From Nemertoderma westbladi (Eukaryota > Animalia > Xenacoelomorpha): 44,301 nt of DNA. Shown here piece after piece: positions 2-38,641 of this stretch. A program made the translations under genes and the position numbers. Numbering within the stretch: the first letter of the stretch is position 1; each line of letters starts with the position of its first letter. The notes under the pieces are model-generated. The model was given only the letters and a program-made list of their open reading frames with translations. It did not search any database and was not told where the DNA came from. The stretch is taken from the NCBI GenBank assembly GCA_032718475.1, contig JAUCBJ010007045.1, positions 1-44,301 of the forward strand, in the 5' to 3' direction.

Positions 2-3000
2 TATGGGAAATTTAGTGTCAAAGGATAATGGGGCGTTGGTTAGCCTACCTCCAACACGTATTAACCCATCTATCATGGTACTAGAGAAGCGATCCCTTAA
101 GCGCATCTGTGGATTTCTTAACAACAGGAAATACTTATCGGAATCCTCATAGCATTGTAGGAGTCTCAGCATCTGTTTGTTGGTTTCATCATGCTCCTGG
201 TAACTGATCTTCTCCTTTAGAAACCTGTCGGATATCTTGTATTTGGGAAGATCTTTAACAACATGGACTCGTGCAGATGTTGATGGAGCATCATCACTAT
301 TGGTCTTTGTCCCGGAGTAACGATGATGAAAACATCGTTTCAAATAGGTAACAGCTTTACAGAGCCGATTCCAGGAACTGTAGTGACGTATCGCTCTCTG
401 CAAGAGAGGTGAGAGTCCTTGCGAGATATCTGGTATTCCAGATTTCCAATCCTTGTCACGGATTTCCAAGACTTCTTTAGTCGTGGCGGTGGGTTTCTGA
501 TCCAAAGCATCCTCTCCGGAAGTAAATAATACAGATAGATCAACCGCAGGTTTAAACAACTTCGATTTACTCGCTCGAGTTTTGGGTTTAACTTTCTCCG
601 CTCCCTTGGCCTGTCTGATCTCTGCTGTTGTGAGATGGGGAGGCCATTCTTCTTCTTCCCTGTAGAGAAAGTCAGGTCCTCCTAACCATTCGGGAGTATT
701 TACCAATTCCTTTGGAGTCGCTCCTCGGGACGCGATGTCTGCTGGGTTAATCGTTCCGGGGCAATGTCTCCATTGGTCCATCGTCGTGCGACTAAGTATG
801 ATGGCTACCCTGTTGGTAACGAAGACGCTGAACTGACAGACTTCATTGGTTATATACTCTAACACGAGTAAAGCGTCGGTCCAATAGACAGTTTTCTCTA
901 ATGTATAGTCAATCTGTTCGGTTACATTCCGGCCGATGGCTGTAGCGTATAGAGCCGCTTTTAACTCCGCTCGAGGAACTTTCAACTTGTTGTTGATTAA
1001 TGCCTTAGAAGTAACCAAGGCTACTTTGATTCCATCCGGAGTTTCCACTCTTAGGTAGGCTACTATACCGATTCCCATATCGCTGGCGTCTCCAAACACA
1101 TGGAGTTGATAGGAATACGTAGGGAGAACATGACCAAAATATGAACGGGAAATTATAAACTCCTCGATGGCCGGTAGAGAATCTTCCCATTTCATCCACT
1201 TCTTCAATAATTCTCCCTTAAGTGGATCGTCCCATGAGTGGTTTTCAAGCCACATTTGTTGTACCAAACTTCGAGCAATCAATATAACTGGGCTAATAAA
1301 TCCCAATGGATCGAAATAAGTGCTCAGTATACTTAAGCAAATCCGTTTGGTTCGAACTGGATTATCTCGCTGTTTTAGCTGGAAAAACAGGATATCTCTC
1401 TCTGTGTCCCATTTCAAGCCGAGTGTCTTGGTCTCTGGCAGATCATCTTTGATCAAATCGAGATCTTTCGCTCCTCGATCTTCCGCAGGGATCGACTCCA
1501 GAAACTCACGGGAGTTGCTGGTGAATTTGGTTAATCGAAATCCACCTCTTTTTAAGCACTCTACCGTTCCCTTAGCGACCTCAATGGCTTCCTCAACTGA
1601 TGGGAGGGACTTCAGATTGTCGTCCATGTATATGTCTCTCTTGATGTTGTCGATCACTTCCTTAGAGAATGCCTCTCGGTTGTCCTCTGCAGTAGTACGC
1701 ACTACCGAACAGGCGTTGGAAGGGCTTGAGATTATCCCAAAGGCCTGGATGGTCATCCAGTACTCCACCGGTTTCTGGTTGAGGTCTCCTTCGGGCCACC
1801 ATAGAAATCGTAGGCTATCTCGATCCCTATCCAACACTTTGACTTGCAAGAACATGCCTTCTATATCGGAGGCGAAAGCAATCGAATATTGTCTCAATCT
1901 TAAAAGAATTCCCAACAAAGATTGAAGTAAGTTGGGTCCGGGTAACAATTCAGAGTTAAGGGATTGACCCATGTAAAGAGCGGAGCCATCAAACACTACT
2001 CTCACTTCATTTGGTTTACCGGGTTTAGGAACGTAATGGTGAGTTAAATAATACGTTCTTTCAGTCACAGGTGTTTCTTCCGGTACCCTCTCCGCGTATC
2101 CCTTATTAATAAATTTTTCCAGCTGTGTTTGATACATTGCTTTAGCTGAAGAATTAGCCGTAAGGCGTCGATGGAGTTGCGCGATTCTTTTTTCCGCCAA
2201 AGGTCTGTTATTGATGAACTTCGGTTCTCTCTTGCGAAAAGGTAAACCGACTTCGTACCTTCCTTGATCTTTGAGGAAACGTGTAGTTGTCTCTTGGATC
2301 TGCTTGGCCCTTTCCTCTTCCACCGACAAGGCTTTATCGTAGGAATTGGGCTCTACCGCCTCTTGCGTAAAGAATCGTACAGCATGTTCATCTCGAGTCT
2401 TGGCATTGCAACGCTCAATGACGTCATTTAACTCGTCGTTATAAGCTTCTCGTTCAGATGGATAGAGAAGTTGACATAAGTTCACTTGGTTTTGCCAAGC
2501 CTCGTTTTCCTTAAGGAGATCGATGGTATTCTCCTCATCAAAAAGCTGGTGAACGTCGTCGTTATCTGAGGAGTATGGAATTCCCTCAGTTGAATCGTCT
2601 CCCTCACTAGCATCATCTTCCCATTCACTCACCTGGCAGACTCTCTCTTGCGGTAGTCTTTCTCTGAGTGTTCTACGGGAAGGGCCAGTAAAGTACCAAC
2701 CTACTCTAGTTCTTACCGCATAGGTCTGTAGGGGCTGCGGTTGAGCAGGCCGTTTCTCTAACGTCTCCAGCGCCTCATGCGCGTTTTGGCCGATGAGTAT
2801 TTGCACTCCAGGATAATCAGTCTGGAATCGAGGTATGTTAAGATGTTGGATGCTCTCATCCTCGTCCCAATTATAAAGGTCTGCTTGAGTAGTAGCGAAG
2901 TTCTTTATAGCCACCATTTTCACTGACCTTATGCTGTTTTCTCCTAGTTCGTCCTGGGGGGTGGACAACGCTCCTACATAATAATCAGCTGTTATTGTAG

Positions 3001-6000
3001 ATTTCCAAACTTGCATAATGCCTGACATGTTGAGCTTAGTTTGGAACTTGGGTTGTCCAGCAAATATATCTTCGGCTAACTCTTTATCGATGAATGTTCC
3101 TGTGCTGCCGGAGTCCAGAAGGGCGTTCACTACATAACTCCGTTTAGGTCCGTGCACCCTTACCTGCACCACAGGAAACTCTCGGATCCCTACATTGGAA
3201 GATGGCTCTTTCCAAGATGGTTGTCGTTCAGAAGTAGTTAGAGTAAAGTCGTTGTCTGTATCTTTTTCATATGTGAGTGCTCGATACACTGCGGTATTTA
3301 TCATGTAACAGGATTCGTTTTCGTCGGAGAACTCGTCTGTATAGAATCCTTCCATCTCAGATTGATCAGTATCGTTCACATCACTGAATTGGACATGTAG
3401 CTCGGAATCACTTACCTGATTCGGACTATTTCGATCGAATTCAGCGTGCAACAAGATATGATGTTTCGCACCACACTTTGCACACCTTATGTCAGAGAAA
3501 CAGGTTCGCCGTTGGTGTCCTTGTCTGAGGCAATTATAACATAACCGCTTATCCCACATGACTTCGCGTCTCTCTGTTAATGATTTCTTTAGAAATTCAT
3601 CACACCTATTCAAATGGTGGGTCCCGTCGCACAGCGCACATTTCGGTTTGATGTGACTTACCTTATTTTGAATCACATTGTGTACACTTGCCTTTTCTTC
3701 GGGTTTTCTCACCTGAATTCTCTTGGGAGACGTGGGAGGAGTTTTTCTTACCTGTTCCCTCCTGTCATTTGTTCGAGACTTGAATTTACTTACCTGATCT
3801 TTAGGCATTTTATTCACGTAATAAGATCTATCAATGTCTTTCCCGCTATCTTCTCCTTGAGAAGTCTGGCTTTCGCCGTCGTCTGTATAACACACTGGTG
3901 TTACCTTTCTCCTAGAGACGGGTTTTTCACTTACCTTGTTTTCCGGTTTCTTCTCTCGGGACTGCTTGAGGAGTTGCAATTTCACTTCTCCATCCAAGAA
4001 TGACATGAGATCAGCCATGGTAGGGTCTCGCCGTTGTTGTTCCATCATATATAACACTTTCTTATCCCAGCGTGTACCTACTCCACCTTTCGGTAAAGTA
4101 GAAGCCACTGCTCTAATAACCATAGTATTCTGATACTCATGAGACTTACCTAGCCAATCTAATTGTCTGCAGATCTCCTGGATCTCATCGGAAAACTCGA
4201 TAATTCCGCTACTAATAAACTTTCGGGGAGCTACTAACTTTGCATATAAGTACCCAGCGATATTATTCCTATTACCATACCTGATGTTTAGTGTATCCCA
4301 AACTTGTCTTAATCCGTCTGGATGTCCAATAAACTTTAACGCCATTAACTTGGGAGATCCTTCCAAGCACTCGATGAGGTATCTAAGTTTTTCTCCATTA
4401 GATAGTACAGAGTTCTGTATGTTATCTTTGTAATATTCATTAAAAGGTAACCATTTCATCTCATCTCCATTGAACTTGACGATCTCTCCAACCTTTACCG
4501 CTTGCCGGGCTTCGGTTCTAGCCATTTGACGCGTAAAACTTTCTTGGGCCATTGTGTTATTTAATATCGAATTATCGGTATATAAATTTCTCGGATTATG
4601 ATCAGTTCTATAGGGAATATCATTATCAACAGGTCTATAATTACCCTTAATAGGGTTCACTATAGGAGTTTCTACTTCGCTAGCAGTATAAATGCGTGTA
4701 GGCTCCACACCTTGCGCATGAGATACTTCTGACCTAACGGGTTGACACATTGTTACAGGGGGTGGTGGTATACCCTTTTGTAAATTTACTAATTTATCGC
4801 GCTCTAGCGCGATATTTTGCTGCACTTCTTGCAACTCTAACTTACTTTCCCTCACTGTTCCCTTTAAATGTTGGACAGTCCCTTCCAACTCTCGGACCTG
4901 TTGGGAGGAGAGTCTCCGATTCTCCTTCATCTCTCCGAGGAGAATATCCATTCCCCGCCGTCTCTCGTCTACCCAATCAACCGCCGAAACGGGATCCGCC
5001 AACGTCGTAGCGGGCAGACGAGGGACAACGGGCGACAAATTTGGAATATTTCGCTCGGGGTCCAGGACCTGAACTGTCTCCTGGGCAGTTCTACGGGGCA
5101 CAGGTAGCTTAGTGCTATGCAGAGGGAATTTATAGGTAGCTTCAGGGAGCACAGGTGTATCTATCACCGAAGGGGTGATTTCAAGAACAGGCCTACTTAT
5201 TTCAGGCTCATCTACTATAGTAGGGAGTCTTTCTATTGTAATTATTTGGTCTGTGGGTTCTGTACTCTCTAAGTTGGTGTTGTTTAGTTGCCTTCTAACA
5301 GCTGGAGGCAAATCAGGCAATTTCTGACGGTGGAATGTTCTTTTACGTCTGCTTAGGCGGGATCGATTTCCTCCGCCTTCAGTGTCGGTGGTATCGCCTT
5401 CCTCAGATGATGTATAACCTTGTCGTTTGGGAGTAGATCGATTCATCATCTGCATATTACTAGCTGTTAACTGTTTATTAAAGTTATCTTGCCTCTCTTG
5501 AAGATTTTCCAACTCTAGTTGGGTTGTCTCTTCAGATGCCCTCCGTTCTGCTTCTGCCACTGCTATCTTTCTTTCCGCTTCTGCCGCTGCCGCTTTTGCC
5601 TCTGCCGCTGCCGCTTTCCTTTCCGCCTCTACGGCTGCAGCTGCCGCTTTTGCCTCTGCCGCTGCCGCTTTTATTGCTGCAGCTGCCGCTTTTGCCTCTG
5701 CCGCTGCCTCTGCTGCCTTTCTTTCCGCTTCTGCCGCTGCCACTGTCGCTGCTGCTGTCTTTCTATCTTCTATACGTTTTTTCCTTACTTGTTCTTCCTT
5801 TTCTCTAGCGATGCGGAGTTGTTCATCGAATTTAGCTTGGTTCGCCGCTAACCTATCCACATCAATCGCATCTAACACAAGTTTGGCTCCTTCGCTATTA
5901 GGGCTAAGTCCCTCTAGCCTTCTCCTCAACTCTTCATCTCCCAAAAAACGCTGATAGTCTGACAGATAGATATCAATGGCATCCTTCTTATGCGGTTTCT

Positions 6001-6934
6001 CTGCCGTCGCTTCACTTTCCACTTGGGAAAAAGTAGCGTCCGTCGATTCTCCATGGGTTGAGCGCTCCTCCAACTGAGCTTTCCACTGAGCTGCTCCTTG
6101 AACCTGGCGTCTCACCCTTTGAAGCCAAGTCCTTACGGCAACTTGCAACGACGTGTCTTGTCTTCTTTTAGAAGCCTCTTCAAAGGCGGATAAGATTAGC
6201 CTAATTCGCAGAACTCTTTCTCTAACTTGATAAAGCAGCGATCCCTGCTCTTGAGGTCCTTGAGGTTGTTGAAACAGTTGTCTTTCTACTCGCTCCATAG
6301 AGCTGAAGAATCCCTGTGCGTATCCGGCTGCGGACCTCTTCCATACAGCTGGATCGATGGTTTCCTTGGCTACTCCCATCCGGTGTATGTCTTCCCAGGC
6401 AGCTTCTGATAAATCAAACGGGAGTCCGGGTCCGGGGAAGTTCCATTGCGACTCGACAATAGACTTCAGTTCTTCACTCGAGTACCCCGCATAACTATCT
6501 CTAGTTGATCATTGACTCCTCGCCCAATCGATCTGGTGTTCTTCCACCGCGATCAATAACCTAGTGAGTACGGCTGCAGGAAGGATGAGAAGGGGATCCG
6601 TATAAACCGCATCCGTCATCTCTGCTCCGCGCTCGGGTGTCAGCTCTACAGTATCCTCACTACTGGAGCTGCTGGGCCACTGAGGAATAAGTTCTTGACT
6701 AGCGGGTTGTTGCTGTTCCGCTGCTTTTTGGTCCCGCTTGACCTGAGCTCGAGTGCCTATGATAGACCTACGATGTTGGACCAGCCTAGGTTCTGTTATT
6801 ACTACGGGAGGGATGACCTTCCTCACAGTGGGAGGTGAACTGAACTTACGACCAGACGGTTGTACGTCTCTATCTGAGTCGCAGATAGTTACATCTAATA
6901 AACTGTCTGACAGGTTCTGCTTAGTATCAGACAT
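2..6934 (-). CDS. Bel/Pao Gag-Pol polyprotein (Gag with 3 Zn knuckles, aspartic protease, RT, RNase H, start of integrase region); one in-frame TGA at 6511-6509; 3'-partial
   Basis: Hand translation shows the 141-aa ORF (6934-6509) is in the same frame as the downstream polyprotein. Motifs: Gag IVKFNGDEMKW (~4480), three Cys/His knuckles (~3640-3450), LLDSGSTGTFI (~3110), YMDD (1630-1619), LHVFGDAS (~1100), PRAEL, WTDA, NPADIASRG (~745), GLIRVGGRLTNA (~60). I did not translate every codon of the middle part. Its continuity is inferred from the matching frame at both ends and from the ORF track listing no stop-terminated ORF in this frame. Confidence 0.9.
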
Positions 6935-8257
6935 GACTATGTATACCGTTGAATGTCTACTGCTGTATTACAGTCTGAGTAAGTCTAGTAACTCAGTATT
7001 AACTGCTAGCCTAGTAATTAATTACCGGTACTGCTACTCAGTGTAGCGTGATATATATATAATATATTAGAATACCGGTATACTTATAGTATATATAACT
7101 ATATAAGTATTATTACAGACTAGGTTTATCACAGAATACCGGTATAATTTTAGCACAAATATATAAATATATAATAGGCCTATCGGAATACCGGTATACA
7201 GCTTACAGTTTGTAGTATATATAATTCTGGAATAGAATTAATTACAAGTACCGGTATAATTTCAGCCTAGATTTATAGAAATAAGATAATAGGCCTATCG
7301 TAAATACCGGTATATCAATTATTTTAGAATAATTGAATTTCTGAACTTTAGGGTTACGTGGTTACTTTAACTTACTTTATTACCGTTATTTAAGCAGTAA
7401 TCCAACTGATATTGAGACCTAATGGTTTTATGGTAGGCCTACTATTTATAAATCGTTAGATTTGATTTATAATGTATTTATACCCGTTTTAATGGGTTTA
7501 GTCAATGTTTGAAATAAATGTTATTATTTCTGGGGAGTAATCACTACACAAAGCGGTGCGCTTTCAGTGAAGTGTTACTTATAGGACACTAAAACAAATA
7601 ATTCTAATTTACCTAAGTTACTTAATACTACAAATTACGTACAATTCGGGTTGAGATTACAATCTCTAAATAAACACAAAAATTTACAAAAACGCAAATA
7701 CGAAATTTTTAGGGTAATTTTACAAGAAGTCTACAAACCAGCCTAACAAAGGGTTAGAATTCTGGTTATTATAACGGACAGGGTACTACGGTATTTGAAA
7801 TAATAAGTAGTAGTAAATACACTGCGTTGTCCAGATAGGAAAATACCACCGCCTGACGACCTATAGCCGTATCGCTATAGGTTCTACGTTATGTATCACG
7901 GAGTATTCCTACCTAGAAGTTAATAGAGCTAATCGAACGTGCCTATTAACCACTTTACAACACAAATATAATGCCTACACTAATTACTTCGGAAAGTACT
8001 GTACACTAAACCCTAAATTAGGTACGAGTACTTGTACAACAGATAATCAGTAGTTAAATATACTTGAACAGCTAAAAGAACCACGGCATCTGCTGGAGTG
8101 ACCGATGCACAAAATCACCAGTCTTTACCTACGCCGAGCAGCCCGTGTAGTACCGGAGTTAATTTAACTATAGCGGTATGTATAACAAACACAATTACTG
8201 TAGGAACAAACTTGGGGAATGAATGTTGCGGATAATCGCATAAACTCTGAATAATAA

Positions 8258-8820
8258 ATATTACGCTACGCGTACAAACTACTCAAACAAAATACAGACC
8301 GAACACTGACAGACTACTATCAAGCCTAAACAAACTACGGTATATGCAGACTCCGAAATGATTAGGGAGTATGCGCTCTAACCCAGTAGTGCGACTTATT
8401 CTTTAGTTGGGGGTTTACCTTACAGCGTTCGTGCCCCTACTTCCTAACCGTACTTAATCGGACAAGTGATCTACACACGCCGCAATCCGCTCAGGCCTAA
8501 CAACAGCCAGACAATTATCCAGCCTACAAATTATCTAAATAAATATTATACGCTACCCGTACAGACTTACACAAACAAAGTACAGACTAAACGATGGCAG
8601 ACTACTCTCAAGCCTAAATAAACTACAGGACATGCAGACTCCGAAATGATTAGGGAGTATGCGTTCTAACCCAGTAGTACGACTTATTCTTTAATTGGGG
8701 GTTTACCTTACAGCATTCGCTGCCCCTACTTCCTAACCGTACTTAATCGGACAAATGATCTACACACACTGCAATTCGTTCAGACTTAACAGCAATCAGA
8801 CAACAGCTCAGCCTACAAAT
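8258..8820. repeat. ~288-bp tandem duplication in the 5' leader of Bel/Pao copy A
   Basis: The block ATGCAGACTCCGAAATGATTAGGGAGTATGCG...ACTTAATCGGACAA occurs twice (~8344 and ~8631). Confidence 0.85.
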
Positions 8821-9179
8821 CGTCTGTACAATCTGATCAGGTTTACACGCCTTCTGTTCAATACTGGCCTACAAATAAATAAAACTTGACAGAGATAAGT
8901 AAACCATATAAAGGAATAAGGGTGATCAATCCCTAATCCCTTAAACAGCCTACCGGTATGCAACAATCAAATCGAATAATACTAGTGTACTTATACGGAA
9001 GTACCGGTTAGGACAGCTAGGCCTACGGACCTACAGAAGTACCGGTTCTGGCAGTTGGACCTACGGACCTACGGCAGTACCGGTTCTGGCAGTTGGGCCT
9101 ACTGACCTACAGATGTACCGGTTCAGGTTTACCGGTTGACCGGTACTTTCAACTTTATTGCTTACTGCAATAAAGAAGC

Positions 9180-9191
9180 TATATCCTTTAA
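9180..9191 (-). promoter_or_regulatory. Non-tRNA primer-binding site of copy A (TTAAAGGATATA on the minus strand), complementary to LTR 9933-9944
   Basis: Abuts the LTR terminal ACA with no spacer, has no TGG start, and is an exact 12-nt inverted match to 9933-9944. Confidence 0.7.
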
Positions 9192-10386
9192 TGTTCGCGC
9201 TTTCAGACCTTTGGCAGTTTAATCCGCCAAATTAAGATGTCTTCTAGATATTAAATCGCTTTTTAGCTTATGACAAGTATTTGATTCACTACACTAGTCG
9301 AAACCAATCTGTGCGCGACTATTCACCCGCTGGATATTCCCGGGAGATTGGGTTCGACGGTTTAATTTTATTGCTATGTAAGCCTAATGTATTATTCGAC
9401 TGACAGTGTTATATAATCTCTGACAATATTATTCACCTTCGGGAATATTAACAGTTCCTTTAGGACGTGGCGCTTTATTTATATAAACAGAGTTATGACT
9501 TAAACTACTCACAACGATATGGCTTAATTATAATTCACATATATGGCGCATTCTTTAGGAAATGCTTCTTTAACAGACTCACTCATACACAATGCTGCAC
9601 AATACTGCACACTAATCTGCCAATCTTCACTGATTTTAGTCACATATAAAAGGAACACAGACTGACTCATGTAGGGTCTATCAAATAACATTAGATTCAC
9701 TTCAAACCACTTTAACATAAGTCACAATCGTTATTGGTAACCTTTCTCTCTTACCTTCGGTATATCAAGAATATTGGGTGTCGGGGTTATTTCTCGTTAT
9801 TCCAATATAATAATTCATCAACAAATATAATGAATAACCGACAACAAATAGCAGTATGCAGTATTCACAGATCAATCGTGCCAGTTTGTTTTGAGTTAAG
9901 ACAATCAGTCAGTCATCAGTGTGTTTTGTTTGTTAAAGGATATATGTCCTTATAATTAAACCTACTAGTGTTGAGCTAAAAAGCAGAAAGCACAAAACAC
10001 TAAAAAGCCGTTCTTTCGTGGCTTTGAAAAACTCGTGACTACTGCTCTATACGAGGATACCAACTACCCTTATTCCACGAAGCTCCCGTTCAACACAGAG
10101 AAAGAGCAGTGAGATAGGAAATTTTCAGTTCAGTAGCTCTGTGATAGGTCAAAATCAAGGCTAACTCAAATTCTATTGGGAGATACAAAAACAAGGCTAT
10201 GACGCAACCTCCCTAGGCTTGTTGGCCGATTAAACAGAGCCCAGATGCCTGCGCACAGCAAATCAGCCAATAAGCTGGTAACTTGCACTATTTTTAGCTA
10301 TAGATCACTTTGAGAGTATTCTTAGCGACTGGGGGGGAACTGGCCAACAAGGCAAACGAATCAGTTATCCCACAAAAGCTTTTACA
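9192..10386 (-). repeat. 5' LTR of Bel/Pao copy A (1195 bp)
   Basis: TGT...ACA termini on the minus strand. 9192-~9865 is nearly identical to the copy B LTR 3' portion. AATAAA on the minus strand at 9372-9367. Confidence 0.92.
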
Positions 10387-10602
10387 GGTGGCGAAGTAAA
10401 GACGAGGTCATACCAGATCTACTTCTCTGGCAACCAACTCATGGAAAGCGTAGTCGTGGACGACCGGCCATAACATATATAGATCAACTTGAAAGGGATA
10501 CTGAACTTGGGAGAAACGAAATTGCGACAACTATGGAGAATCGGGAAGCCTGGAAGGATCTCATCTCCACTGTCCGAGTTCGCTCGACCTAGTAGTAGTA
10601 GT
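10387..10602 (+). mobile_element. 3' end of an RTE-clade non-LTR retrotransposon, interrupted by Bel/Pao copy A
   Basis: Translates as WRSKDEVIPDLLLWQPTHGKRSRGRPAITYIDQLERDT..MENREAWK, an RTE C-terminal signature, followed by a (TAG)n tail at 10590-10602. Confidence 0.8.
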
Positions 10603-16730: not shown

Positions 16731-16843
16731 GTATGATGTATTGAAGTAACTGATAATTTAATAATAATCAAGATTAAGGCGAAACTGCGAACGAAAAGAG
16801 TACACTACACCCCAGTAAAATTGCTAATATTCAATAATAATCG

Positions 16844-17560
16844 ATGGACGACCGCGAATCTGCATTCAGTTCGTTCTACTCGGAAGTTAAACGGATAGAG
16901 GCGCGTGACTCGGTCCTAACATCCGACCAACAGATAAACAGACTGCTGAAACCGGGCTCCAAATACCTCAACCTGAACCCCTTCGAGGTGCTGCAGATAG
17001 CCCCGAGCGCCACAGAAGACGAGATTAAAAAACAGTACAAAAAACTCAGCATTCTAATCCACCCCGATAAAAACTACGAGGGTAGAGAGCGCGCTCAGCA
17101 GGCCTTCGAGTGTGTGAACGAGGCGTTTAGTAAGTTAAAGGAACCAGTGGAACGTCGTAAACACATCGCGATAATAGATGACGCGAAGGATCAGTTGGAT
17201 CACGAACTCGAGTTAAAGAGGAAAAAGTCGAAGAAAGAAGGATTGCCAGGGATTCCTGAAGACGATAAACAATTCTACAAGGAAGTGTTGTGGAAGACGA
17301 CGGTTAAACTGTTTGCGGATCGGGAGTTAAAGCGACTACGAGCGGAGGAGCACGAGGCCAGTCTCCGGAAACGGGAGCGGGAACAAGAGTTGGAGCAGGA
17401 GGAGGCCGTTAAACGGAAGAAGGAAGGGGAGAAGGAATGGGAGGCCGGGAGGGAAGTCCGGATGAATACCTGGCAGAACTGGAAGGCCGGGAGTAGGAAG
17501 TCTAAGAAAGTACCGGTCGGTTCCTTTAAACCTCCTAAACATAAGTCGGAGAGTAGATGA
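16844..17560 (+). CDS. DNAJC8: DnaJ homolog subfamily C member 8 (spliceosome-associated J-protein SPF31), intronless, 238 aa
   Basis: FYSEVKRIEARDSVLTSDQQINRLLKPGSKYLNLNPFEVLQI, a J-domain with the HPD motif, a charged coiled coil and the C-terminal FKPPKHKSESR are colinear with animal DNAJC8. Confidence 0.96.
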   Translation: MDDRESAFSSFYSEVKRIEARDSVLTSDQQINRLLKPGSKYLNLNPFEVLQIAPSATEDEIKKQYKKLSILIHPDKNYEGRERAQQAFECVNEAFSKLKEPVERRKHIAIIDDAKDQLDHELELKRKKSKKEGLPGIPEDDKQFYKEVLWKTTVKLFADRELKRLRAEEHEASLRKREREQELEQEEAVKRKKEGEKEWEAGREVRMNTWQNWKAGSRKSKKVPVGSFKPPKHKSESR

Positions 17561-17719: not shown

Positions 17720-18652
17720 CCCGGCGATATTGACTCTTTGGTTGCCTCCTGGAATTATAATTGTGGTTGACTATGTTCTACGCATGTCCTTAGATCATCA
17801 TAATGATGATGGGGTGATGATTATAACTCCACCTACTGGCTCCAGAAGTCGATGAAATCCTGCCAAGTACCTAACTGATCTAGACTTTGCTGATGACTTA
17901 GGAGTACTCTCAGAATCACTAGAGGGAGCCCAACGGCTCCTCAGCTCATTAGAACATGCTGCTTCTAGTGTTGGTCTTTTTATTAACTCCAGAAAGACCA
18001 AAATTTTGACAGTTAACTTTGAAAGTCCTCAGCAAGTCTCTGATCGGATGAGCTTAAGCTCAAAGGATGGTATGCTTGAGCATGTGGACGACTTCTGTTA
18101 CCTGGGATCATGGATCCTTCGAATACGTAAGGGAAAGGCATGGGCAGCCTTGAATAGGCTCTCCAGGTTTTGGAAGTTACCGAGAATTAATCTGAAACTT
18201 AAGGTCCGATTATTTAGAGCAGCAGTAGTTCCAGTACTCCTCTATGGGAGTCCATGGATGGCACATTCACAAGAAGGCTACGCCGGGTTCATTGTATCAA
18301 GTACAATGCACACATCTCCAACCAGACACTATAACATTGGAGGTGTCTCATTGGTTCCCCCAAGCTTGACACTAGAACAAAATCGCCTCCGCTTTGCAGG
18401 ACATTGCTTTCGCCGTGAGGACCAGCCAGTGCATAATCTTACTTTGGCAGCCTCATGGAGTGAATAAGCATGGTGGACAGCCCATGACTTTCTTGAGACG
18501 CATCTTAAAGGACACTGGCCTTGAAGATGCGGATAATCTAGCAAATGTCATTCGTGATAGGGAGTTGTGGCGGTGCAATTTTGTCGACAAGCCGGCACAG
18601 CATTCTTAAAAATGCAGCTGCAATATAGCATGCCGATCCTAGTCCTAGTAGT
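17720..18652 (+). mobile_element. 5'-truncated, degenerate RTE-clade LINE (RT C-terminal half)
   Basis: LTDLDFADDL, VGLFINSRKTK, VDDFCYLGSWI, RLRFAGHCFR, with a TAG-type tail at ~18638-18652. Frameshifts and deletions relative to the copy at 43302-43903. Confidence 0.9.
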
Positions 18653-19366: not shown

Positions 19367-20282
19367 ATACCGAACTATATTCAGTTTTTAATTTGTTTAA
19401 TCGAGAATTTGAGGGATTAAATTGACATTAGATACGGAATTTCATCAATCCCGTTATGTTTAATTTTGGTGGGCCTGCGTTTTTAACCACACAACTTATA
19501 ACCAACAGTTGCAGTGCTAAAATCTAAAATAAGTCCAATTGTTGAATACAATTGAAAGATCAGAAATCTATACAGTAAGCTAACTAGCTAAGGGTTAAAT
19601 TAAGGAAATTATACTACACAACACAAACACCATGGTAAATGCATTTCTCCCTAAAAATGTACCATTACCATAAGTTTCTCTATTCAATCTACAATATTTT
19701 GTACTAAAATTTGATTGATTCTTGCCGGGGGCTGACATGTACATTGGTGTATGGTTTTTCCTTTGGACATGTGAAACGGAAGGTCTTTTACTATCGATTT
19801 TAAAATAAATTTGTTTGAACGAAATTTGAAACTTGCATCAACATTCAGTATATATGTACAGTACCTGAAGAAGAACTGTACTAAAGTCTGAAAGCTCGTA
19901 CCTAAACCGTACCTATTATTTCCCTTTTGTTTGTGGGTGAAGACCTTTCTATTATATTAACTGTAGGCCTACTATAAATTTGTTTCTTCTAAAATGCTGA
20001 AATATAGTCCAAAAATTGGTTGAGTTATATCCGCTACAGTATAATAAAATTCCAAGAAAACGTTTTGAAGCAAGCGAAGGGATGTTAACTGTAAGTCTCC
20101 CTTCGGCGTAAGATTTAATGTTGGATTTGCAGCACGAAGCTGCACATTTGAATGTAAATTTGATTTTCGAGGCAGTATCGAAAAATAATTATATTCTATT
20201 GCTTCTACCTGTTTACAGTTCATATCCGCTTAATGTTTAGTGCGTTGTACCCACCCCGCCCATATTTAGTTGTCTGGGGCGG

Positions 20283-21528
20283 TGTAAAAGCCTTTGCTGA
20301 ATTGCCCCGTTATTTTTATTATCTTTTACATTAAAATACTCTGTAGTTGATTTAATAAGTGTAAGAGACCGTATTATTGCTGTATCGGTGTTTTTAGAGG
20401 ATCTAAGACCTATTTCCTCCGTATGTGTACTGTGAAAGGCATATTTTATGAATCTATGGCAATTCGTGACGCAAAGGGGTGATAGCTACTCTTGAACAGT
20501 AGTTACTATGACTACGGTTAACAGCTGACATTCATATGTGTTGATTTCCTTTGTTCTACGGCGTCTCTCAGTTCAGTCAGCCAATTAGAGCGTTTTTGTG
20601 GCTCCTTGTACAGAAAATTTCCGAGAAATGACGCAATGCCTATGTGCAGTGTTTACATTCAGTCCTGAGCCAAAGAAAGAACGGCTTGGAAGTATTTTGT
20701 GCTTTACTGTTTTTTAGTCTTACACTAGTAGGTTTAATTATAAAGGGCATATATCCTTTAACCTAACGACTACCTGACTCATGGAATCACTGCTAACTGA
20801 TCATACATACTGACTGCTGAAACATTGCAAACTCATAACAATCAGTGTTCAGTTGTTGTTTTATACTGCTATTTGTTGTCGGTTATTCATTATATTTGTT
20901 GATGAATTATTATATTGGAATAACGAGAAATAACCCCGACACCCAATATTCTTGATGTGCCGAAGGTAAGAGAGAAAGGTTACCGATAAACGATTGTGAC
21001 TTATGTTAAAGTGGTTTGAAGTGAATCTAATGTTATTTGATAGACCCTACATGAGTCAGTCTGTGTTCCTTTTATATGTGACTAAAATCAGTGAAGATCG
21101 GCAGATTAGTGTGCAGTATTGTGCAGCATTGTGTATGAGTGAGTCTGTTAAAGAAGCATTCCTAAAGAATGCGCCATATATGTGAATTATAATTAAGCCA
21201 TATCGTTGTGAGTAGTTTAAGTCATAACTCTGCTTATATAGATAAAGCGCCACGTCCTAAAGGAACTGTTAATATTACCGAAGGTGAATAATATTGTCAG
21301 AGATTATATAATACTGTCAGTCGAATAATACATTAGGCTTACATAGCAATAAAATTAAACCGTCGAACCCAATCTCCCGGGAATCTCCAGCGGGTGAATG
21401 GTCGCGCACGGATTGGTTTCGACTAGTGTAGTGAATCAAATACTTGTCATAGACTAAAAACAGATTTAATATCTAGAAGACATCTTAATTTGGTGGGTTA
21501 AACTGCCAAAGGTCTGAAAGCGCGAACA
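20283..21528 (+). repeat. 5' LTR of copy B
   Basis: Direct repeat of 30857-32102. The only difference I saw is T20537 vs C31111. TATAAA at ~20739 and AATAAA at 21348-21353. Confidence 0.96.
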
Positions 21529-21540
21529 TTAAAGGATATA
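21529..21540 (+). promoter_or_regulatory. Non-tRNA primer-binding site of copy B (TTAAAGGATATA), complementary to LTR 20750-20761
   Basis: Directly follows the LTR ACA and is the exact reverse complement of TATATCCTTTAA at 20750-20761. Confidence 0.7.
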
Positions 21541-21824
21541 GCTTCTTTGTTGCAGTAAGCAATAAAGTTGAAAGTACCGGTCAACCGGTAAACCTGAACG
21601 GTACACCTGTAGGTCAGTAGGCCTAACTGTTCTAACCGGTACTTCAGTATAAGTACACTAGTATTATTCGATTTGATTGTTGCATACCGGTAGGCTGTTT
21701 AAGGGATTAGGGATTGATCACCCCTTATACCTTTATATGGTTTACTTGTTTCTGTCAAGTTTTATTTATTTGTAGGCCAGTATTGAACAGAAGGCGTGTA
21801 AGCCTGATCAGATAGTACAGACGA

Positions 21825-22388
21825 TTTGTAGGCTGAGCTGTTGTCTGATTGCTGTTAAGTCCGAACGAATTGCAGTGTGTGTAGATCACCTGTCCGATTA
21901 AGTACGATTAGGCAGTAGGGGCAGCGAACGCTGTAAGGTAATCCCCCAACTAAAGAATAAGTCGCACTACTGGGTTAGAGCGCATACTCCCTAATCATTT
22001 CGGAGTCTGCATGTCCTGTAGTTTATTTAGGCTTGAGAGTAGTCTGCCATCGTTTGGTCTGTACTTTGTTTGTGTAAGTCTGTACGGGTAGCGTATAATT
22101 TTATTTAGATAATTTGTAGGCTGGATAGTTGTCTGGCTGTTATTAGGTCTGAACGGATTGCCGCGTGTGTAGATCATCTGTCCGATTAAGTACGGTTAGG
22201 CAGTAGGGGCAGCGAACGCTGGAAGGTAAACCCCCAACTAAAGAATAAGTCGCACTACTGGGTTAGAGCGCATACTCCCTAATCATTTCGGAGTCTGCAT
22301 ATACCGTAGTTTGTTTAGGCTTGATAGTAGTCTGTCAGTGTTCGGTCTGTATTTTGTTTGAGTAGTTTGTACGCGTAGCGTAATATTT
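21825..22388. repeat. ~288-bp tandem duplication in the leader of copy B
   Basis: Units start at ~21825 and ~22113. Homologous to 8258-8820. Confidence 0.85.
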
Positions 22389-23710
22389 ATTATTCAGAGT
22401 TTATGCGATTATCCGCAACATCCATTCCCCAAGTTTGTTCCTACAGTAATTGTGTTTGTTATACATACCGCTATAGTTAAATTAACCCCGGTACTACACG
22501 GGCTGCTCGGCGTAGGTAAAGACTGGTGATTTTGTGCATCGGTCACTCCAGCAGATGCCGTGGTTCTTTTAGCTGTTCAAGTATATTTAACTACTGATTA
22601 TCTGTTGTACAAGTACTTGTACCTAATTTAGGGTTTAGTGTACAGTACTTTCCGAAGTAATTATTGTAGACATTATATTTGTGTTGTAAAGTGGTTGATA
22701 GGCACATTCGATTAGCTCTATTAACTTCTAGGTAGGAACACTCCGTGATACATAACGTAGAACCTATAGCGATACGGCTATAGGTCGTCAGGCGGTGGTA
22801 TTTTCCTATCTAGACAACGCAGTGTATTTACTACTACTTATTATTTCAAATACCGTAGTACCCTGTCCGTTGTAATAACCGGTTTTCTAACCCTTTGTTA
22901 GGCTGGTTTGTAGACTTCTTGTAAAATTACCCTAAAAATTCGTATTTTGTGTTTTTGTAAATTTTTGCATTTATTTAGAGATTGTAATCTCACCCGAATT
23001 GTACGTAATTTGTAGTATTAAGTAACTTAGGTAAATTAGAATTATTTGTTTTAGTGTCCTATACGTAACACTTCACTGAAAGCGCACCGCTTTGTGTAGT
23101 GATTACTCCCCAGAAATAATAACATTTATTTCAAACATAGACAAAACCCATTAAAACGGGTATATATATATTATAAATCAAATCTAACGATTTATAAATA
23201 GTAGGCCTACCATACAACCATTAGGTCTCAATATCAGTTGGATTACTGCTCAAATAACGGTAGTAAAGTAAGTAAAGTAACCAAGTAACCCTAAAATACA
23301 GAAATTCAATTATTTAAAATAATTGATATACCGGTATTTACGATAGGCCTATTATCTTTATTTCTATAAATTTAGGCTGAAATTATACCGGTACTTATAA
23401 TTAATTCTAGTCCAGAATTATATATACTACAAACTGTAAACTGTATACCGGTATTCCCGATAGGCCTATTATATATTTATATATATTTGTGCTAAAATTA
23501 TACCGGTATTCTGTGATGAACCTAGTCTGTAATAATACTTATATAGTTATATATACCATAAGCATACCGGTGTTCTAATATATTATATATATATCCTACT
23601 ACACTGAGTAGCAGTATCGGTAATTAATTACTAGGCTAGCAGTTAATACTGAGTTACTAGACTTGCTCAGACTGTAATACAGCAGTAGACATTCAACTGT
23701 ACACACAAAC

Positions 23711-24704
23711 ATGTCTGACGCAAAGCAGAACCTGTCAGACAGTCTACTAGATACAACGGAGAGTGAAGCGACAGCAGAGAAACCGCATAAGAGGGATGCC
23801 ATTGATATCTATCTGTCAGACTATCAACGTTTTTTAGGTGATGACGAATTGAGGAGAAGGTTAGAGGGACTTAACCCTAATAGCGAAGGAGCCAAGTTTG
23901 TGTTGGACGCAATAGATGCGGAAATGTTGGCAGCGAATAGAGCGGAAATTGATGAAAGAATCCGCATCGTTAGAGAATGGGAACAACAGTTGAAGAAAAA
24001 ACGTATAGAAGACAGAAAGATAGCAGCAGTGGCAGAGGCGGAAAGAAAAGCGACCTTGGCAGAAGCAGCGGCAGAGGCAAAAGCGGCAGCAGCAGAAGCA
24101 GAGGCAAAGGCAACAGCGGCAGCAGCAGAAGCAGAGGCAAAGGCAACAGCGGCAGCAGCAGAAGCAAAGGCAGAGGCAAAAGCGGCAGCGGCAGAGGTAA
24201 AAGCGGCAGCGGTGGCGGAAGCAGAACGGAGAGCATCTGAAGAGGCAACCCAACTAGAGTTGGAAAATCTTCAAGAGAGGCAAGACAACTTCAATAAACA
24301 GTTAACAGCTAGTAATATGCAGATGATGAGTCGATCTACTCCCAAAAGACAGGGATATACATCATCGGAGGAAGGCGATACCACCGATACTGAAGGCAAA
24401 GGAAATAGATCTCGTCTAAGCAGACGTAAAAGAAATTCCACCGTCAGAAATTGCCTGATTTGCCTCCAGCTGTTAGAAGGCAACTAAATAACACCAACTT
24501 AGGTAGTACAGAGCCCACAGACCAAATAATTAAAATAGAAAGACTCCCTACTATAGTAGATGAGCCTGAAATAAGTAGGCCTGTTCTTGAAATCACCCCT
24601 TCGGTGATAGACATATCTGTGCTCCCTGAAGCTACCTATAAATTCCCTCTACAACTGCCCGAGAGACAGTTCAGGTCCTGGACCCCGAGCGAAATATTCC
24701 GAAT
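23711..24704 (+). pseudogene. Frameshifted N-terminal part of copy B Gag (contains an Ala-rich EAKAAAA repeat)
   Basis: ORFs 23711-24487 and 24451-24774 match consecutive parts of the single copy A frame. Relative to A there is a 1-nt deletion at ~24435 and a 28-nt deletion at ~24650. Confidence 0.85.
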
Positions 24705-27700
24705 TTGTCGCCCGTTGTCCCTTGTCTGCCCGCTACGACGTTGGCGGATCCCGTTTCGGCGGTTGATTGGGTAGACGAGAGACGGCGGGGGATGGATATT
24801 CTCCTTGGAGAGATGAAGGAGAATCGGATACGCTCCTCCCAACAGGTCCGAGAGTTGGAAGGGACTGTCCAACATTTAAAGGGCACAGTAAGGGAAAGTA
24901 GACTAGAGTTGCAAGAGGTGCAGCAAAGTATTGCGTTAGAATGCGATAAATTAGTGAACATACAAAGGGGTATAACACCACCCCCTGTAACAATGTGTCA
25001 ACCCGTTAGGTCTGAAGTATCTCATGCGCAAGGTGTGGAACCTACACGCATATATACTGCTAGCGAAGTAGAAACTCCTATAGTAAACCCTATTAAGGGT
25101 GATTATAAACCTGTTGATAATGATATTCCATATAGACCTGATCATAATCCGAGAAATTTAGATACCAATAATTCTATATTCAATAATACGATGGCTCAAG
25201 AAAGTTTTACGCGTCAAATGGCTAGAACCGAAGCCCGTCAAGCGGTAAAGGTTGGAGAGATTGTCAAGTTCAATGGAGATGAGATGAAATGGTTACCTTT
25301 TAATGAATATTACAAAGATAACATACAGAACTCTGTACTATCTAACGGAGAGAAACTTAGATTCCTCATCGAATGTTTGGAAGGACCTCCCAAGTCAATG
25401 GCGTTAAAATTTATTGGACATCCAGATGGATTAAGACAAGTTTGGGATACACTAAACATCAGGTATGGTAATAGGAATGACATAGCTGGGTATTTGTATG
25501 CAAAATTAATGGCGCCCCGAAAGTTTCTTAGCAGCGGGATTATAGAGTTTTCCGATGAGATTCAGGAGATCTGTAGACAATTAGATTGGCTAGGTAAGTC
25601 TCATGAATACCAGAATTCTATGGTTGTAAGAGCCTTAGCATCTGCTTTGCCCAAGGGTGGAGTAGGTACACGCTGGGATAAGAAGGTGTTATATATGATG
25701 GAACAACAACGACGAGACCCTACCATGACTGATCTCATGTCATTCTTAGATAGAGAAGTGAAATTACAGCTCCTAAGGCAGTCCAGAGAGAAGACATTGG
25801 AAAACAAAGTAAGTGAGAAACCCGTTTCTAGGAGAAGGGTAACACCAGTATGTTATACCGACGACGGTGAAAGCCAAACCTCTCAAGGAGAGGACAGCGG
25901 GAAAGACACTGACAGGCCTTATTATGTCAATAAAATGCCTAAAGAACAGGTAAGTAAATCCAAGTCTCGACCCAATGACAGAAGGGAACCGGTACAAAAA
26001 AACCCTCCTACGTCTCCTAAAGGAATTCAGGTGAGAAAGCCCGAGGAAAGAACAAGTGTGCACCACATAGCACAGGTTAAAGTAAGTAACATCAAGCCGA
26101 AATGTGTGCTGTGCGACGGGCCCCACCGTTTAAATGCGTGTGATAAATTCCTGAGGAAATCACTCGAGGATAGACGTGAAGTCATGTGGGATAAGCGGTT
26201 GTGTTATAATTGCCTCAGACGAGGACACCAACGGCGAACCTGTAACTCCGACGCAAGGTGTGCAAAGTGCGGCGCAAAACATCATATCTTGTTGCACACG
26301 GAATTCGAACGAAACAGCCCGAGTCAGGTAAGTGAGTCCGAACTACATGTCCAATTCAGTGATGTGAACGACACTGATCAATCTGAGATGGAAGGATTCT
26401 ATACGGACGAGTTCTCCGACCAAAACGAATCCTGTTACCTAATAAACACCACCGCAGTGTATCGAGCACTCGTGTATGAGAAAGACACAGACAGCGACCT
26501 TGCCTTAACTACTTCCGATCAACAACCATCTTGGAAAGCGCCAACTTCCAATATAGGAATCCGAGAATTTCCTGTAGTCCAGTTACGGGTCCACGGACCT
26601 CAGAAGAGCTATATAGTGAACGCCCTCCTGGACTCCGGTAGCACAGGAACATTCATCGATAGGGAACTAGCCGAAGTCATCTTTGCTGGACAACCCAAGT
26701 TCCGAACCATGCTAAACATGTCAGGGATCATGCAGGTTTGGAATTCTACTGTAGCTGCCGACTATTATATAGGTGAGTTGTCCACCCCCCAGGACGAACT
26801 AGGAGAACATAGCATCAGGTCAGTGAAAATGGTGGCTATAAAGAACTTCGCTACTACTCAAGCAGACCTTTATAATTGGGACGAGGATGAGAGCATCCAA
26901 CATCTTAACATACCTCGATTCCAGACTGATTATCCTGGAGTGCAAATACTCATCGGCCAAAACGCGCATGAGGCGCTGGAGACATTAGAGAAACGGCCTG
27001 CTCAACCGCAGCCACTACAGACCTATGCGGTAAGAACTAGAGTAGGTTGGTACCTTACTGGACCTTCCGGTAGAACGCTCAGGGAAAGACTGCTTCAAGA
27101 TCGCGTCTGCCAGATGAGTGAATGGGAAGATGATACTAGTGAGGGAGACGACCCAACTGAGGGAACACCACACTCCTCAGATAATGACAATCTTAGCTCC
27201 AATGTAGATCAATGGAGATATTGCCCCAAGAAGTTTAATCCAACGGACATCGCTTCCAGAGGAGCAACTCCTCAAGAACTGACAGATACTACAGACCGAT
27301 TAGGTGAACCCGACTTCCTGAGTAAGGAGAATGAATGGCCTCCCCATCTTACTCCGACTGAGATTATACCAGCCAAGGGAGCGGAGAAAGTCGAACCTGA
27401 AACCCGGACGTGTGGATCGGAGTTATTTGAACCCGGGATAGATCTGTCGGTATTACATGTTGCCAGGGACGACGCCGTGGATCTGGGCCTCCCCACCGCG
27501 AGTGGATCCTTCATGAAGATCAGAGAGAGCGATTGGAGCTCTGGAACATCAGACGTCTCGCAGGGACTCTCACCTCTCCTGCAGAGAGCGACGGACCACT
27601 ATAGCTCCTGGAATCGGCTTTGTGACGCCGTCATCTACTTTGAGCGATGTTTCTATCGTCACTATTCCAGGACGAAGAGGAAACCTGGAATTGTATTCAG

Positions 27701-27842
27701 GATGCAGCGACTCAATCACCCAGTCGGTCGTTTGTGTTTATCGGAAGGGAATGGAGGACTCTCCGGAAACTGTGGAAGGCAAGATTCTCTTCCCACGACC
27801 ACCTCCCTAATCCTTCAAACATCTAGGGACTCCATAACGTAA
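24705..27842 (+). CDS. Copy B Gag core, Zn knuckles and aspartic protease fused in frame to the post-RNase H linker (1045 aa from TTG; first ATG at 24792)
   Basis: Gag core (KFNGDEMKWLPF..LSNGEKLRFL), CVLCDGPHRLNAC, CYNCLRRGHQRRTC, CAKCGAKHHILLH, LLDSGSTGTFI, GWYLTGP, then directly QWRYCPKKFNPTDIASRG. No YxDD motif. Confidence 0.85.
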   Translation: MSPVVPCLPATTLADPVSAVDWVDERRRGMDILLGEMKENRIRSSQQVRELEGTVQHLKGTVRESRLELQEVQQSIALECDKLVNIQRGITPPPVTMCQPVRSEVSHAQGVEPTRIYTASEVETPIVNPIKGDYKPVDNDIPYRPDHNPRNLDTNNSIFNNTMAQESFTRQMARTEARQAVKVGEIVKFNGDEMKWLPFNEYYKDNIQNSVLSNGEKLRFLIECLEGPPKSMALKFIGHPDGLRQVWDTLNIRYGNRNDIAGYLYAKLMAPRKFLSSGIIEFSDEIQEICRQLDWLGKSHEYQNSMVVRALASALPKGGVGTRWDKKVLYMMEQQRRDPTMTDLMSFLDREVKLQLLRQSREKTLENKVSEKPVSRRRVTPVCYTDDGESQTSQGEDSGKDTDRPYYVNKMPKEQVSKSKSRPNDRREPVQKNPPTSPKGIQVRKPEERTSVHHIAQVKVSNIKPKCVLCDGPHRLNACDKFLRKSLEDRREVMWDKRLCYNCLRRGHQRRTCNSDARCAKCGAKHHILLHTEFERNSPSQVSESELHVQFSDVNDTDQSEMEGFYTDEFSDQNESCYLINTTAVYRALVYEKDTDSDLALTTSDQQPSWKAPTSNIGIREFPVVQLRVHGPQKSYIVNALLDSGSTGTFIDRELAEVIFAGQPKFRTMLNMSGIMQVWNSTVAADYYIGELSTPQDELGEHSIRSVKMVAIKNFATTQADLYNWDEDESIQHLNIPRFQTDYPGVQILIGQNAHEALETLEKRPAQPQPLQTYAVRTRVGWYLTGPSGRTLRERLLQDRVCQMSEWEDDTSEGDDPTEGTPHSSDNDNLSSNVDQWRYCPKKFNPTDIASRGATPQELTDTTDRLGEPDFLSKENEWPPHLTPTEIIPAKGAEKVEPETRTCGSELFEPGIDLSVLHVARDDAVDLGLPTASGSFMKIRESDWSSGTSDVSQGLSPLLQRATDHYSSWNRLCDAVIYFERCFYRHYSRTKRKPGIVFRMQRLNHPVGRLCLSEGNGGLSGNCGRQDSLPTTTSLILQTSRDSIT

Positions 27843-29135
27843 CAACATATGGAGTGGGTGTGTGACTCTATTATTTATATTATTCTATTATTTTTATATT
27901 TATGTATGTATTACTATGTAATTTTATTATAATCGTTTTATTTAATTTAGTAGAATATTATTTAGCGATTATTTTGTAGAATAGTGCAATATATTCGTGT
28001 TTATTACGTACGTAATTACTTATATTATATTTAGTGCGACGGCGAAGAAATAATTATTTTTTCTCTTTCCTTACTGTCCGTATTATATTATAAATACGTA
28101 ACTACAGTAAGATGAAATGTCCGTACTTATTAAAGTACAATAAAGCCACTACTATATTTAAGTATTATTGGTAGGCAGAGTATTAGGAATGCAAAGTTCA
28201 GATCCTCGTGTCTCGGCTAAATCAAGCTCTGGGTAGACCTTGGAAACGACTTGCCTCTTCACACTGACATTGCTTCGTGCGATATTGCTCTCATACCGTA
28301 TATTAAATAATACATATAGTAGCGTGATGTCCCTTTAACAGTAGCGTATCACGCAAAATAAATCTGTTAAACCCTTTGACCATCTGTAATTCTAGTCGAT
28401 TAAGATATCGTGGCACCCACCGATATACTTGAAAGACAAATTCTAGAATCAGTGGTTAACGTCCCCAGACAAGTTCTGGAATAAATCGGTGCCCATCTCA
28501 AATATTAATTATTTAATATTTGCAAATCTAATACGTCAAAATCTGTAAAATTTAGATCCTTTAACAATTCTAGTCGATTAAGATATCGTAGCATTTACCG
28601 ATATTCTTAAAAAAGACAATTGTCATAGAATTAAGGATCTTGTGTCCCTAGACATGTTCTAGAATCAAAATATGTCAATTTAATTATCAAATAATAAAAT
28701 TTCAGGGAATAAATTTAAATTCATGCCTTTTAATGAATTTAATAAATTGCCATTTTTACGCAATTTATAACATTCCCAAAATTCCATTAATTAATAGATC
28801 AAGGGAGCGGAGATTTATCTTATTATGTGTATGAGTGTGCGAAAGTCTCCCAAACATAGTCAATAGCCGATAAAATTCATAAAGTCATGTATAAAACAGA
28901 ACATTGACTATTAAAGAATACTATTAAATAACATCCCAGATCTGTATGCATTGGAATTGCTCTAATTCTACCGCTAGCTTTGCATAATGTCACCATAGCA
29001 ACAACCACGCTAGAATTAGAATTGAGTTAAAAGAAAAATAGAAAGCTTGTCCCATTGAATAGCATAGGGAATAAATAGCACACTACTAGTATCCAAGGAT
29101 ACATAATAATACAGTGACATTCTGGAAGGCATTGA

Positions 29136-30850: not shown

Positions 30851-30856
30851 GAGCGG
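30848..30856 (+). promoter_or_regulatory. Short polypurine tract (TGGGAGCGG) before the 3' LTR
   Basis: Purine-rich run directly upstream of the 3' LTR TGT. Confidence 0.65.
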
Positions 30857-32102: not shown

Positions 32103-32494
32103 GGCGGGTGTTTGCAAAAGGTGGACTGGACACAGAAGACCAATCAGAAACGTATTAAGCAAAGCAGTTTGTAGTGATTGGTCTGTCCAGTTTTCGTTTC
32201 TTAATTACGTATTTGGCTTAATTACGCCGATATCTCAGCTATTTCTCAACGAACTAATAGTTGTTTACTACTTACTTATTTAGAATCGTTGCAACGACAG
32301 CTTTCCAATTCCTCGAACCACTATAAGGATGAAGAATTACTGCGGTGGGACTAGTTGGTGCAATATCGACAAAAATATATTTTATTAAAGAATTTATTTT
32401 CATGCAGTAATTATAATAATAATTAGCATGATTTTATCAATAAAACTACATAGGGGGGGCTATTGTATATTGTAGCCTACAATGCAATATATAA

Positions 32495-38514: not shown

Positions 38515-38641
38515 GAACGTGTTCCTTGATTTACTGTAAACTGTACAGTTGTAGGCCTATATTACAGTATTAGTTTTTAGTATTCTGGTTTTCTTTTCAG
38601 TTATTCCCTTTTCTGCTTTTCCTACTGCGCTACCGGTAACG

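Follow-up and report, generated by a model that had tools for sequence, protein, structure and literature searches.

Self-priming of reverse transcription has been demonstrated for the LTR retrotransposon Tf1, and other gypsy as well as some copia elements are predicted to use it (PMC4600332; PMC3601003; PMC6317226; PMC7175516, among others). In Tf1, bases 1-11 pair with the primer-binding site (PBS), with cleavage by RNase H between bases 11 and 12 (PMC7175516). The RT of Tf1 adds non-templated bases (PMC3185545), and about half of the Tf1 cDNA retains, at the 3' end, a single-stranded DNA copy of the PBS (PMC11042837); thus, primer and PBS can be matched by copying too. The pretzel duplexes of Tf1 are described in a preprint on S. 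osmophilus (bioRxiv 2022.12.06.519325). Similar to the two elements of this study, Tf1/Tf2 of Schizosaccharomyces pombe, Tj1, Tosmo1-3 and the Tf1/sushi group possess a PBS past the CA end of the LTR that is complementary to 11-12 nt of their own LTR, and they lack a tRNA site. In plants, self-priming of Tcn1 (gypsy) and of TAR, Houba and Osr-1 (copia) is predicted by the same sequence criterion, which is a putative self-primer of at least 10 bp whose pairing starts 0-5 nt past the LTR (PMC6317226). Different from the elements of this study, these belong to other superfamilies and to plant hosts, and a splice-junction primer is not mentioned for them in the accessible text of that source. The tRNA-primed BEL/Pao elements (Belpaoviridae; L060 and L068 in this study) share with our elements the gag-pro-RT-RNase H layout, the triple Cys-His box, the TG..CA LTRs and the 5-bp duplication. 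However, they have TGG 2-5 nt past the LTR and no LTR complement, which is the reverse of what was found here. Among the openly accessible papers searched (subscription papers, Repbase and GyDB lay outside the search, and a prior mention is possible), none was found on self-priming in BEL/Pao elements or on a splice-built primer in any element. The accessible text of PMC3118150 does not mention priming, primer, PBS or tRNA, and that of PMC554778 does not mention PBS or tRNA.

The window analyzed in this study, a 44,301-nt stretch of Nemertoderma westbladi DNA, contains two related BEL/Pao LTR retrotransposons, copies A and B. Copy A is on the minus strand. Its 5' LTR (9192-10386) is 1195 bp long with TGT...ACA ends and is separated by a leader of ~2.7 kb from an open gag-pol frame of 2169 codons (2-6508), which is cut by the window start; the 3' LTR and integrase lie beyond the window. 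The frame encodes DUF1759, a triple Cys-His box, a DSGS protease, a YMDD RT and Peptidase_A17. The Cys-His motifs of Gag are at aa 957, 990 and 1009 and the protease motif LLDSGS is at aa 1130-1135, and both the triple box and LLDxG are marks of BEL/Pao (PMC554778). Peptidase_A17 and DUF1759, together with the protease-RT-RNase H order in a single frame, also identify copy A as BEL/Pao. By these domains it falls outside the Ty3/gypsy chromoviruses, to which the Tf1/sushi group belongs by phylogeny. Moreover, the Pao Pfam family PF05380 was found in 22 of 22 longer homologs.

Copy B is on the plus strand. Its 5' LTR (20283-21528) and 3' LTR (30857-32102), each 1246 bp long, have TG..CA ends and are flanked by a 5-bp target duplication, GGCGG, at 20278-20282 and 32103-32107, as is typical of BEL/Pao. 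Its coding remains (23735-27677) consist of a gag-protease portion interrupted by frame breaks, plus a fragment of late pol, without RT and RNase H. By these features copy B is young and non-autonomous, because its two LTRs are 1 difference apart and the target duplication is present, yet RT and RNase H are missing. The N-terminal part of the gag frame carries Ala/Glu-rich tandem repeats (5547-5755, minus; 24022-24240, plus) that vary between A and B. The ~3.2 kb between the pol fragment of B and its 3' LTR (27678-30856) are without a long frame; four short frames of this region had no Pfam match, and a repeat at 178-nt spacing was found at 28388-28668.

The PBS position of copy A (9180-9191, minus; plus-strand letters TATATCCTTTAA) adjoins the CA of the LTR, and its complement is a 12-mer inside the LTR (9933-9944, minus; LTR nt 443-454). 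The same pair recurs in copy B on the plus strand, where the PBS position (21529-21540) has 12 letters identical to those of A and the LTR 12-mer is at 20750-20761 (LTR nt 468-479) and again at 31324-31335 in the 3' LTR. The first-pass annotation of this DNA had placed and spelled the pair of copy A correctly. Among exact complements of the 40 nt past the LTR, the 12-mer is the longest, and its expected count per LTR is ~3e-4. At 12 nt and an offset of 0 after the CA, it falls within the published definition of a putative self-primer. TGG, which is located 0-5 nt from the LTR end in a tRNA-type PBS, is absent from the first 40 nt past the LTR in both A and B. The primer starts at 37% of the LTR length in A and B, and at 29-55% across elements with known LTR start. 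We consider it probable (roughly 0.7) that the 12-mer is a Tf1-like self-primer of a BEL/Pao element, with a predicted cut site at the edge of conservation described below.

In transcript sense, the 12-mer is followed by a single shared C (9932, minus, in A), which is common to A, B and 12 of 18 lineages and is predicted to be the 3' side of the cut. Past this C are a hypervariable block of 74 nt in A (9858-9931, minus), with an A/C-rich start and five ACTG words, and a variable block of 100 nt in B (20763-20862, plus), whose identity of 52% is close to that of shuffles (48%). The distal R/U5 of A (9192-9857, minus) is then 97% identical to B (648/667) up to the LTR end, and AATAAA is located ~570 nt past the 12-mer start in both copies. 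These results confirm the earlier description, in which the LTRs diverged past the 12-mer for ~70-100 nt before becoming near-identical again and conservation ended about one base from the predicted primer 3' end. Omitted from that description were the sequences upstream of the 12-mer. An island of 72-74 nt (9945-10016, minus, in A), likely the core promoter, is 85% identical between A and B (64/75), and the U3 of A (10017-10386, minus) is unalignable to that of B (52%, equal to shuffles). The chance of an edge lying no more than 1 nt from the pairing end is ~0.8%, by post hoc arithmetic (~3 boundaries x 3 positions / 1195). Similar to A and B, Tosmo shows mosaic LTR divergence near the U3-R junction (bioRxiv 2022.12.06.519325).

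The first-pass annotation had taken the edge between A and B as a sign that selection acts on the pairing itself, which the comparison by itself does not show. At the rate of the island, 12/12 identity has a p of 0.15 and 15/15 identity a p of 0.09. The identity of the PBS between A and B is not independent, since the PBS sits inside the recently shared 97% block, and compensatory changes between A and B were absent. At four-fold sites, 53 of 300 (18%) differ between A and B in gag-pro, at which distance 12/12 is expected ~9% of the time by arithmetic; in the late pol fragment 20 of 46 (43%) differ, and 12/12 would be rare. Copies A and B are mosaics, and hence the distance applicable to the island may be that of gag-pro or that of pol. 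It had also been stated beforehand that a 12-mer no more conserved than its neighbors would count against the reading. The rates above bear this out in part. The 85% island also includes a stretch of at least 20 identical nt, which exceeds the 15-nt stretch that contains the 12-mer. Judged from these alignments, selection on pairing is not demonstrated by the A/B pair alone. The support that the earlier annotation claimed for self-priming comes instead from distant BEL/Pao relatives: the compensatory changes that it proposed to look for in more distant subfamilies are present in other BEL/Pao families, in which the edge recurs.

Under self-priming, transcription would start at the 12-mer or within ~10-14 nt of it, the RNA 5' end would fold back over ~750 nt onto the PBS and be cut past nt 11 or 12, ahead of the conserved C, and the freed primer 3' end would be extended by RT into U5. 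Following the standard LTR cycle, minus-strand strong-stop DNA would copy just up to the cut once the primer is removed, and the progeny would take both its primer sequence and its U3 from the 3' RNA copy. Template switches between subfamilies, strand transfer, recombination and end-of-template errors would then cluster right behind the primer and produce a hypervariable block with a sharp 5' edge. Because the cut end would be both the template end and the strand-transfer site, an edge at the 3' end of the primer is expected from self-priming without selection. Selection would keep PBS and primer matched, and so would copying of primer sequence into the PBS. Copying and template switching explain the edge no less well than selection. 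Taken with the covariation among relatives it argues for self-priming, and neither the edge nor the covariation separates selection from copying.

When an RNA reaching from the 12-mer through the first 60 nt past the LTR was folded, the predicted duplex had a probability of ~1 in both copies for starts from 0 to 10-14 nt upstream of the 12-mer and of ~0 for starts at least 20 nt upstream, long-range prediction of this kind being uncertain. A 9-bp leader hairpin (9153-9175, minus), identified from sequence and fold directly past the PBS, is kept in B via a G-U change. No canonical TATA box was found at -30 in A or B; a TATA-like word ~10 nt ahead of the 12-mer could place the transcription start downstream of the 12-mer. 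Among the relatives described below, TATA at -30 was clear only in L023, and the mean A+T content showed a slight peak at -40 to -21 (0.66 vs 0.51-0.56 nearer). Three further candidate features were rejected. A Tf1-type pretzel is not general, since the leader-LTR helix was at chance level in 15 of 16 relatives; in A and B this helix of 9 and 8 bp, respectively, was borderline (3% and 10% of controls), alongside a U5 stem of 6 bp. A hairpin switch that would hide the primer in the 3' LTR has a hairpin of 5-7 bp in A and B, not above shuffles (96 and 52 of 300, respectively; in relatives, 255/300 for L047, 111/300 for L055 and 21/300 for L039). An A/C-rich spacer past the primer was strong in A, L002 and a few others and is not general.

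Metagenome contigs were scanned with an alignment of 13 RT-RNase H sequences. The search matched 597 stretches, from which 502 relatives were obtained and 80 kept; none was found among viral contigs. Those examined for pairing below were 37-44% identical to A and 40-68% identical among themselves in RT-RNase H. They probably come from few host species, since many contigs carry near-identical copies. A long-range direct repeat was found in 36 of the 80 loci, and the LTR 3' end was fixed in 15 elements by comparison of two copies, that of L057 being set by eye two bases further; L019, L029, L038, L050 and L080 were not scored. Thirteen of the 15 fixed-end elements showed pairing of 10-15 nt between their own PBS and their own LTR, and the PBS differed from family to family. 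In 11 of the 15, the pairing was found solely across a predicted splice junction, with donors GTAAG in 9 and GTACG in 2 and an AG acceptor when any GT..AG was allowed, and shuffled PBSs reached an equal score in 0-3 of 200 trials. The best LTR half-match was often directly preceded by a pyrimidine tract and AG. Two elements, L055 with 11 nt (shuffles 1/200) and L039 with 10 nt (12/200, weak), had contiguous pairing, and the two tRNA-type elements L060 and L068 were at shuffle level (177/200 and 111/200, respectively). Ends were set by eye for two more elements: L015, whose 11-nt pairing is of the spliced type, and L049, with 12 contiguous nt. The spliced-type LTRs, L015 included, were those of L002, L005, L006, L015, L021, L023, L030, L034, L040, L042, L057 and L076, and their predicted GT..AG introns ranged from 67 to 581 nt. 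In L023, a TATATAAG box is located 31 nt ahead of the first paired base, which would imply a first exon of 5 nt. A splice-junction primer was also sought in A and B and rejected, the best match of 7-8 nt being equal to chance.

With stricter donors, own pairing of at least 10 nt was found in 13 of 15 elements (14 relatives and A). Outside one close cluster, cross pairing between unrelated families reached at least 10 nt in 3 of 198 combinations and at least 11 nt in 0 of 198, in a table that omits L034 as a near copy of L030. A single clade comprises L039, L049 and L046, whose primers are contiguous and whose changes are matched on both sides; the LTR end of L046 is from a blind scan and less certain. 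Blind LTR-end scans covered 8 loci with known LTR start and 6 circular contigs. L047 alone clearly beat chance (15 nt; control maximum 10), while L003, L054, L073, L026, L046 and L077 fit the geometry with 10-12 nt, within or near the control range, and L035, L028 and L041 gave nothing convincing in these scans. L011, L022, L027 and L037 were repeats of families already counted. The loop between primer and PBS was 741-767 nt in A and B vs 74-233 nt in the relatives, a much greater span that counts against self-priming in A and B.

The edge recurs in these lineages. At the pairing end, 17 of 18 lineages had A at -2, 13 had C at -1 and 12 had C at +1, and from +2 on there was no consensus; 7 of the 18 have scan-derived LTR ends. 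In an earlier set, C at +1 was found in 12 of 17 lineages (background 0.28, p 3e-4) and, with close families merged, in 9 of 14 (p 0.005). Identity ended 1-4 nt past the pairing in 10 of 12 pairs of related families; the exceptions were 8 nt, between two near-identical families, and 0 nt. Thus, the single extra base shared by A and B is the group-wide C. The A at -2 and the C at +1 may mark a fixed cut site.

Variation at the edge was also found within N. westbladi, where contigs of four public runs were compared with 9000-10450 by summed contig depth, which is not equal to copy number. The depth of bin 9882-9930 vs that of the 12-mer bin was 6,863 vs 343,189, 5,153 vs 215,081, 75 vs 4,393 and, in the fourth run, 0 vs 24. 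Depth fell ~40-60-fold past the 12-mer in three runs and the A-type U3 was still well covered; across the family, the block that follows the 12-mer is therefore hypervariable. At least two joints (run X3) and at least one loose end (run X5) depart from A at 9934, once nt 11 of the 12-mer is passed. Among those listed, the X5 record is the sole one with letters; it has a different base at position 12 and keeps the C at 13. As these records leave A after nt 11, the shared core may be 11 nt, like that of Tf1.

In a tree of 29 sequences, from which seven loci with short matches (L040 included) were dropped and which was built without reference elements of named BEL/Pao clades such as Sinbad, Suzu, Dan and Sailor, A joined self-pairing elements with an SH-aLRT of 97.7, and the two tRNA-type elements paired apart (87.2). 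A was on a long branch, and the node uniting all self-pairing elements was without support. Contiguous primers were scattered among spliced ones (A; L047; L046/L039/L049; L055; L077). Their occurrence at several places of the tree suggests repeated loss of the intron, an outcome that reverse transcription of a spliced 3' LTR copy would produce. The A/B family is likely an intron-less form in a group whose primers would mostly be splice-built, and likely self-primes in a Tf1-like way within a BEL/Pao lineage. For the lineage at large we see about even odds for a joint claim: that a broad animal lineage of BEL/Pao self-primes, that in most families the host spliceosome would join a tiny first exon to the next exon to build the primer of 10-15 nt, that several branches, the A/B family included, have lost the intron and carry the primer in one piece, and that all are cut at a common A-N/C signal, whose position is seen as the sharp edge in the LTR.

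Different from Tf1/sushi, which are Ty3/gypsy chromoviruses, A and B are BEL/Pao elements, their primer and PBS are ~750 nt apart, a three-duplex pretzel is borderline in them and unsupported in the relatives, and most relatives would need splicing to obtain the primer. If the reading is correct, self-priming would reach a third LTR superfamily and represent a further independent escape from tRNA priming, and, with primers of the spliced and the unspliced type side by side in one group, retrotransposition would be linked to host splicing. The edge with A at -2 and C at +1 provides a cut-site prediction that is precise to the base.

The predicted splice-built primers of the relatives bear on one alternative, in which A and B self-prime from a start further upstream, with the island conserved as a 3' splice site together with a short exon, and with a primer extended at its 5' end. 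Inside the island, a T-rich tract whose terminal AG lies at 9977-9976, 31-32 nt ahead of the 12-mer, resembles a splice acceptor. With pyrimidines at 16 of 20 positions, it ranks among the strongest acceptor-like sites of both LTRs, and both copies retain it. The predicted LTR intron at the primer in 11 of 15 relatives fits this alternative too. However, the U3s of A and B share no GTAAG-type donor, and 35 nt of upstream sequence reduced the predicted duplex to 0.00-0.03. We regard an upstream start as unlikely. Slightly less likely again is that the pairing is real but serves RNA folding, such as packaging, a dimer or translation switch or a 5'-3' contact used in strand transfer, and that a tRNA fragment or other host RNA primes. 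Half-tRNA priming is known in Ty1/copia lineages (PMC6317226); no tRNA gene was found within the window. Against this explanation, the pairing always starts 0-4 nt past the LTR end, where a primer must sit, each family's different PBS is matched by its own LTR only, and the two TGG-type relatives are without pairing. It is improbable that the 12-mer is a mere part of the core promoter, with an ordinary recombination or repeat-turnover boundary as the edge and a chance PBS match: the longer identical run in the 72-nt island at 85% identity, the short ACTG repeats of the variable block and the boundary of the Tosmo mosaic LTRs 9 bp from the U3-R junction (bioRxiv 2022.12.06.519325) fit such an origin, but the match probability is ~3e-4 and 13 of 15 relatives show this geometry in different letters.

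Several other features of the two elements and of the window were observed. The long leader of both copies contains a 288-nt tandem duplication (8246-8820; 21824-22398), and in copy A a 38-nt triple repeat is found directly past the PBS (8994-9107). Both LTRs possess a strong donor-like site, AAG|GTAAGAG (9754-9748, minus; ~20966, plus), ~190-216 nt past the 12-mer start; if leader splicing used this donor, the PBS would be removed and a translation-only RNA would result. The host DNA directly before the 5' LTR of copy B (20270-20282) resembles the polypurine tract of B (30843-30856) over ~13 nt, target duplication included, either by chance or by homology-biased insertion. Outside the two elements, a PTPA gene in a single frame (38555-39583, plus; Pfam PF03095, the whole domain without introns) and a DnaJ-domain frame (16841-17560, plus) are either host genes or retrocopies. 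Finally, a second repeat family is represented by an inverted pair (18116-18650 and 43302-43874) that is 90% alike and has weak RVT_1 and DUF6451 matches; its members are likely non-LTR fragments.
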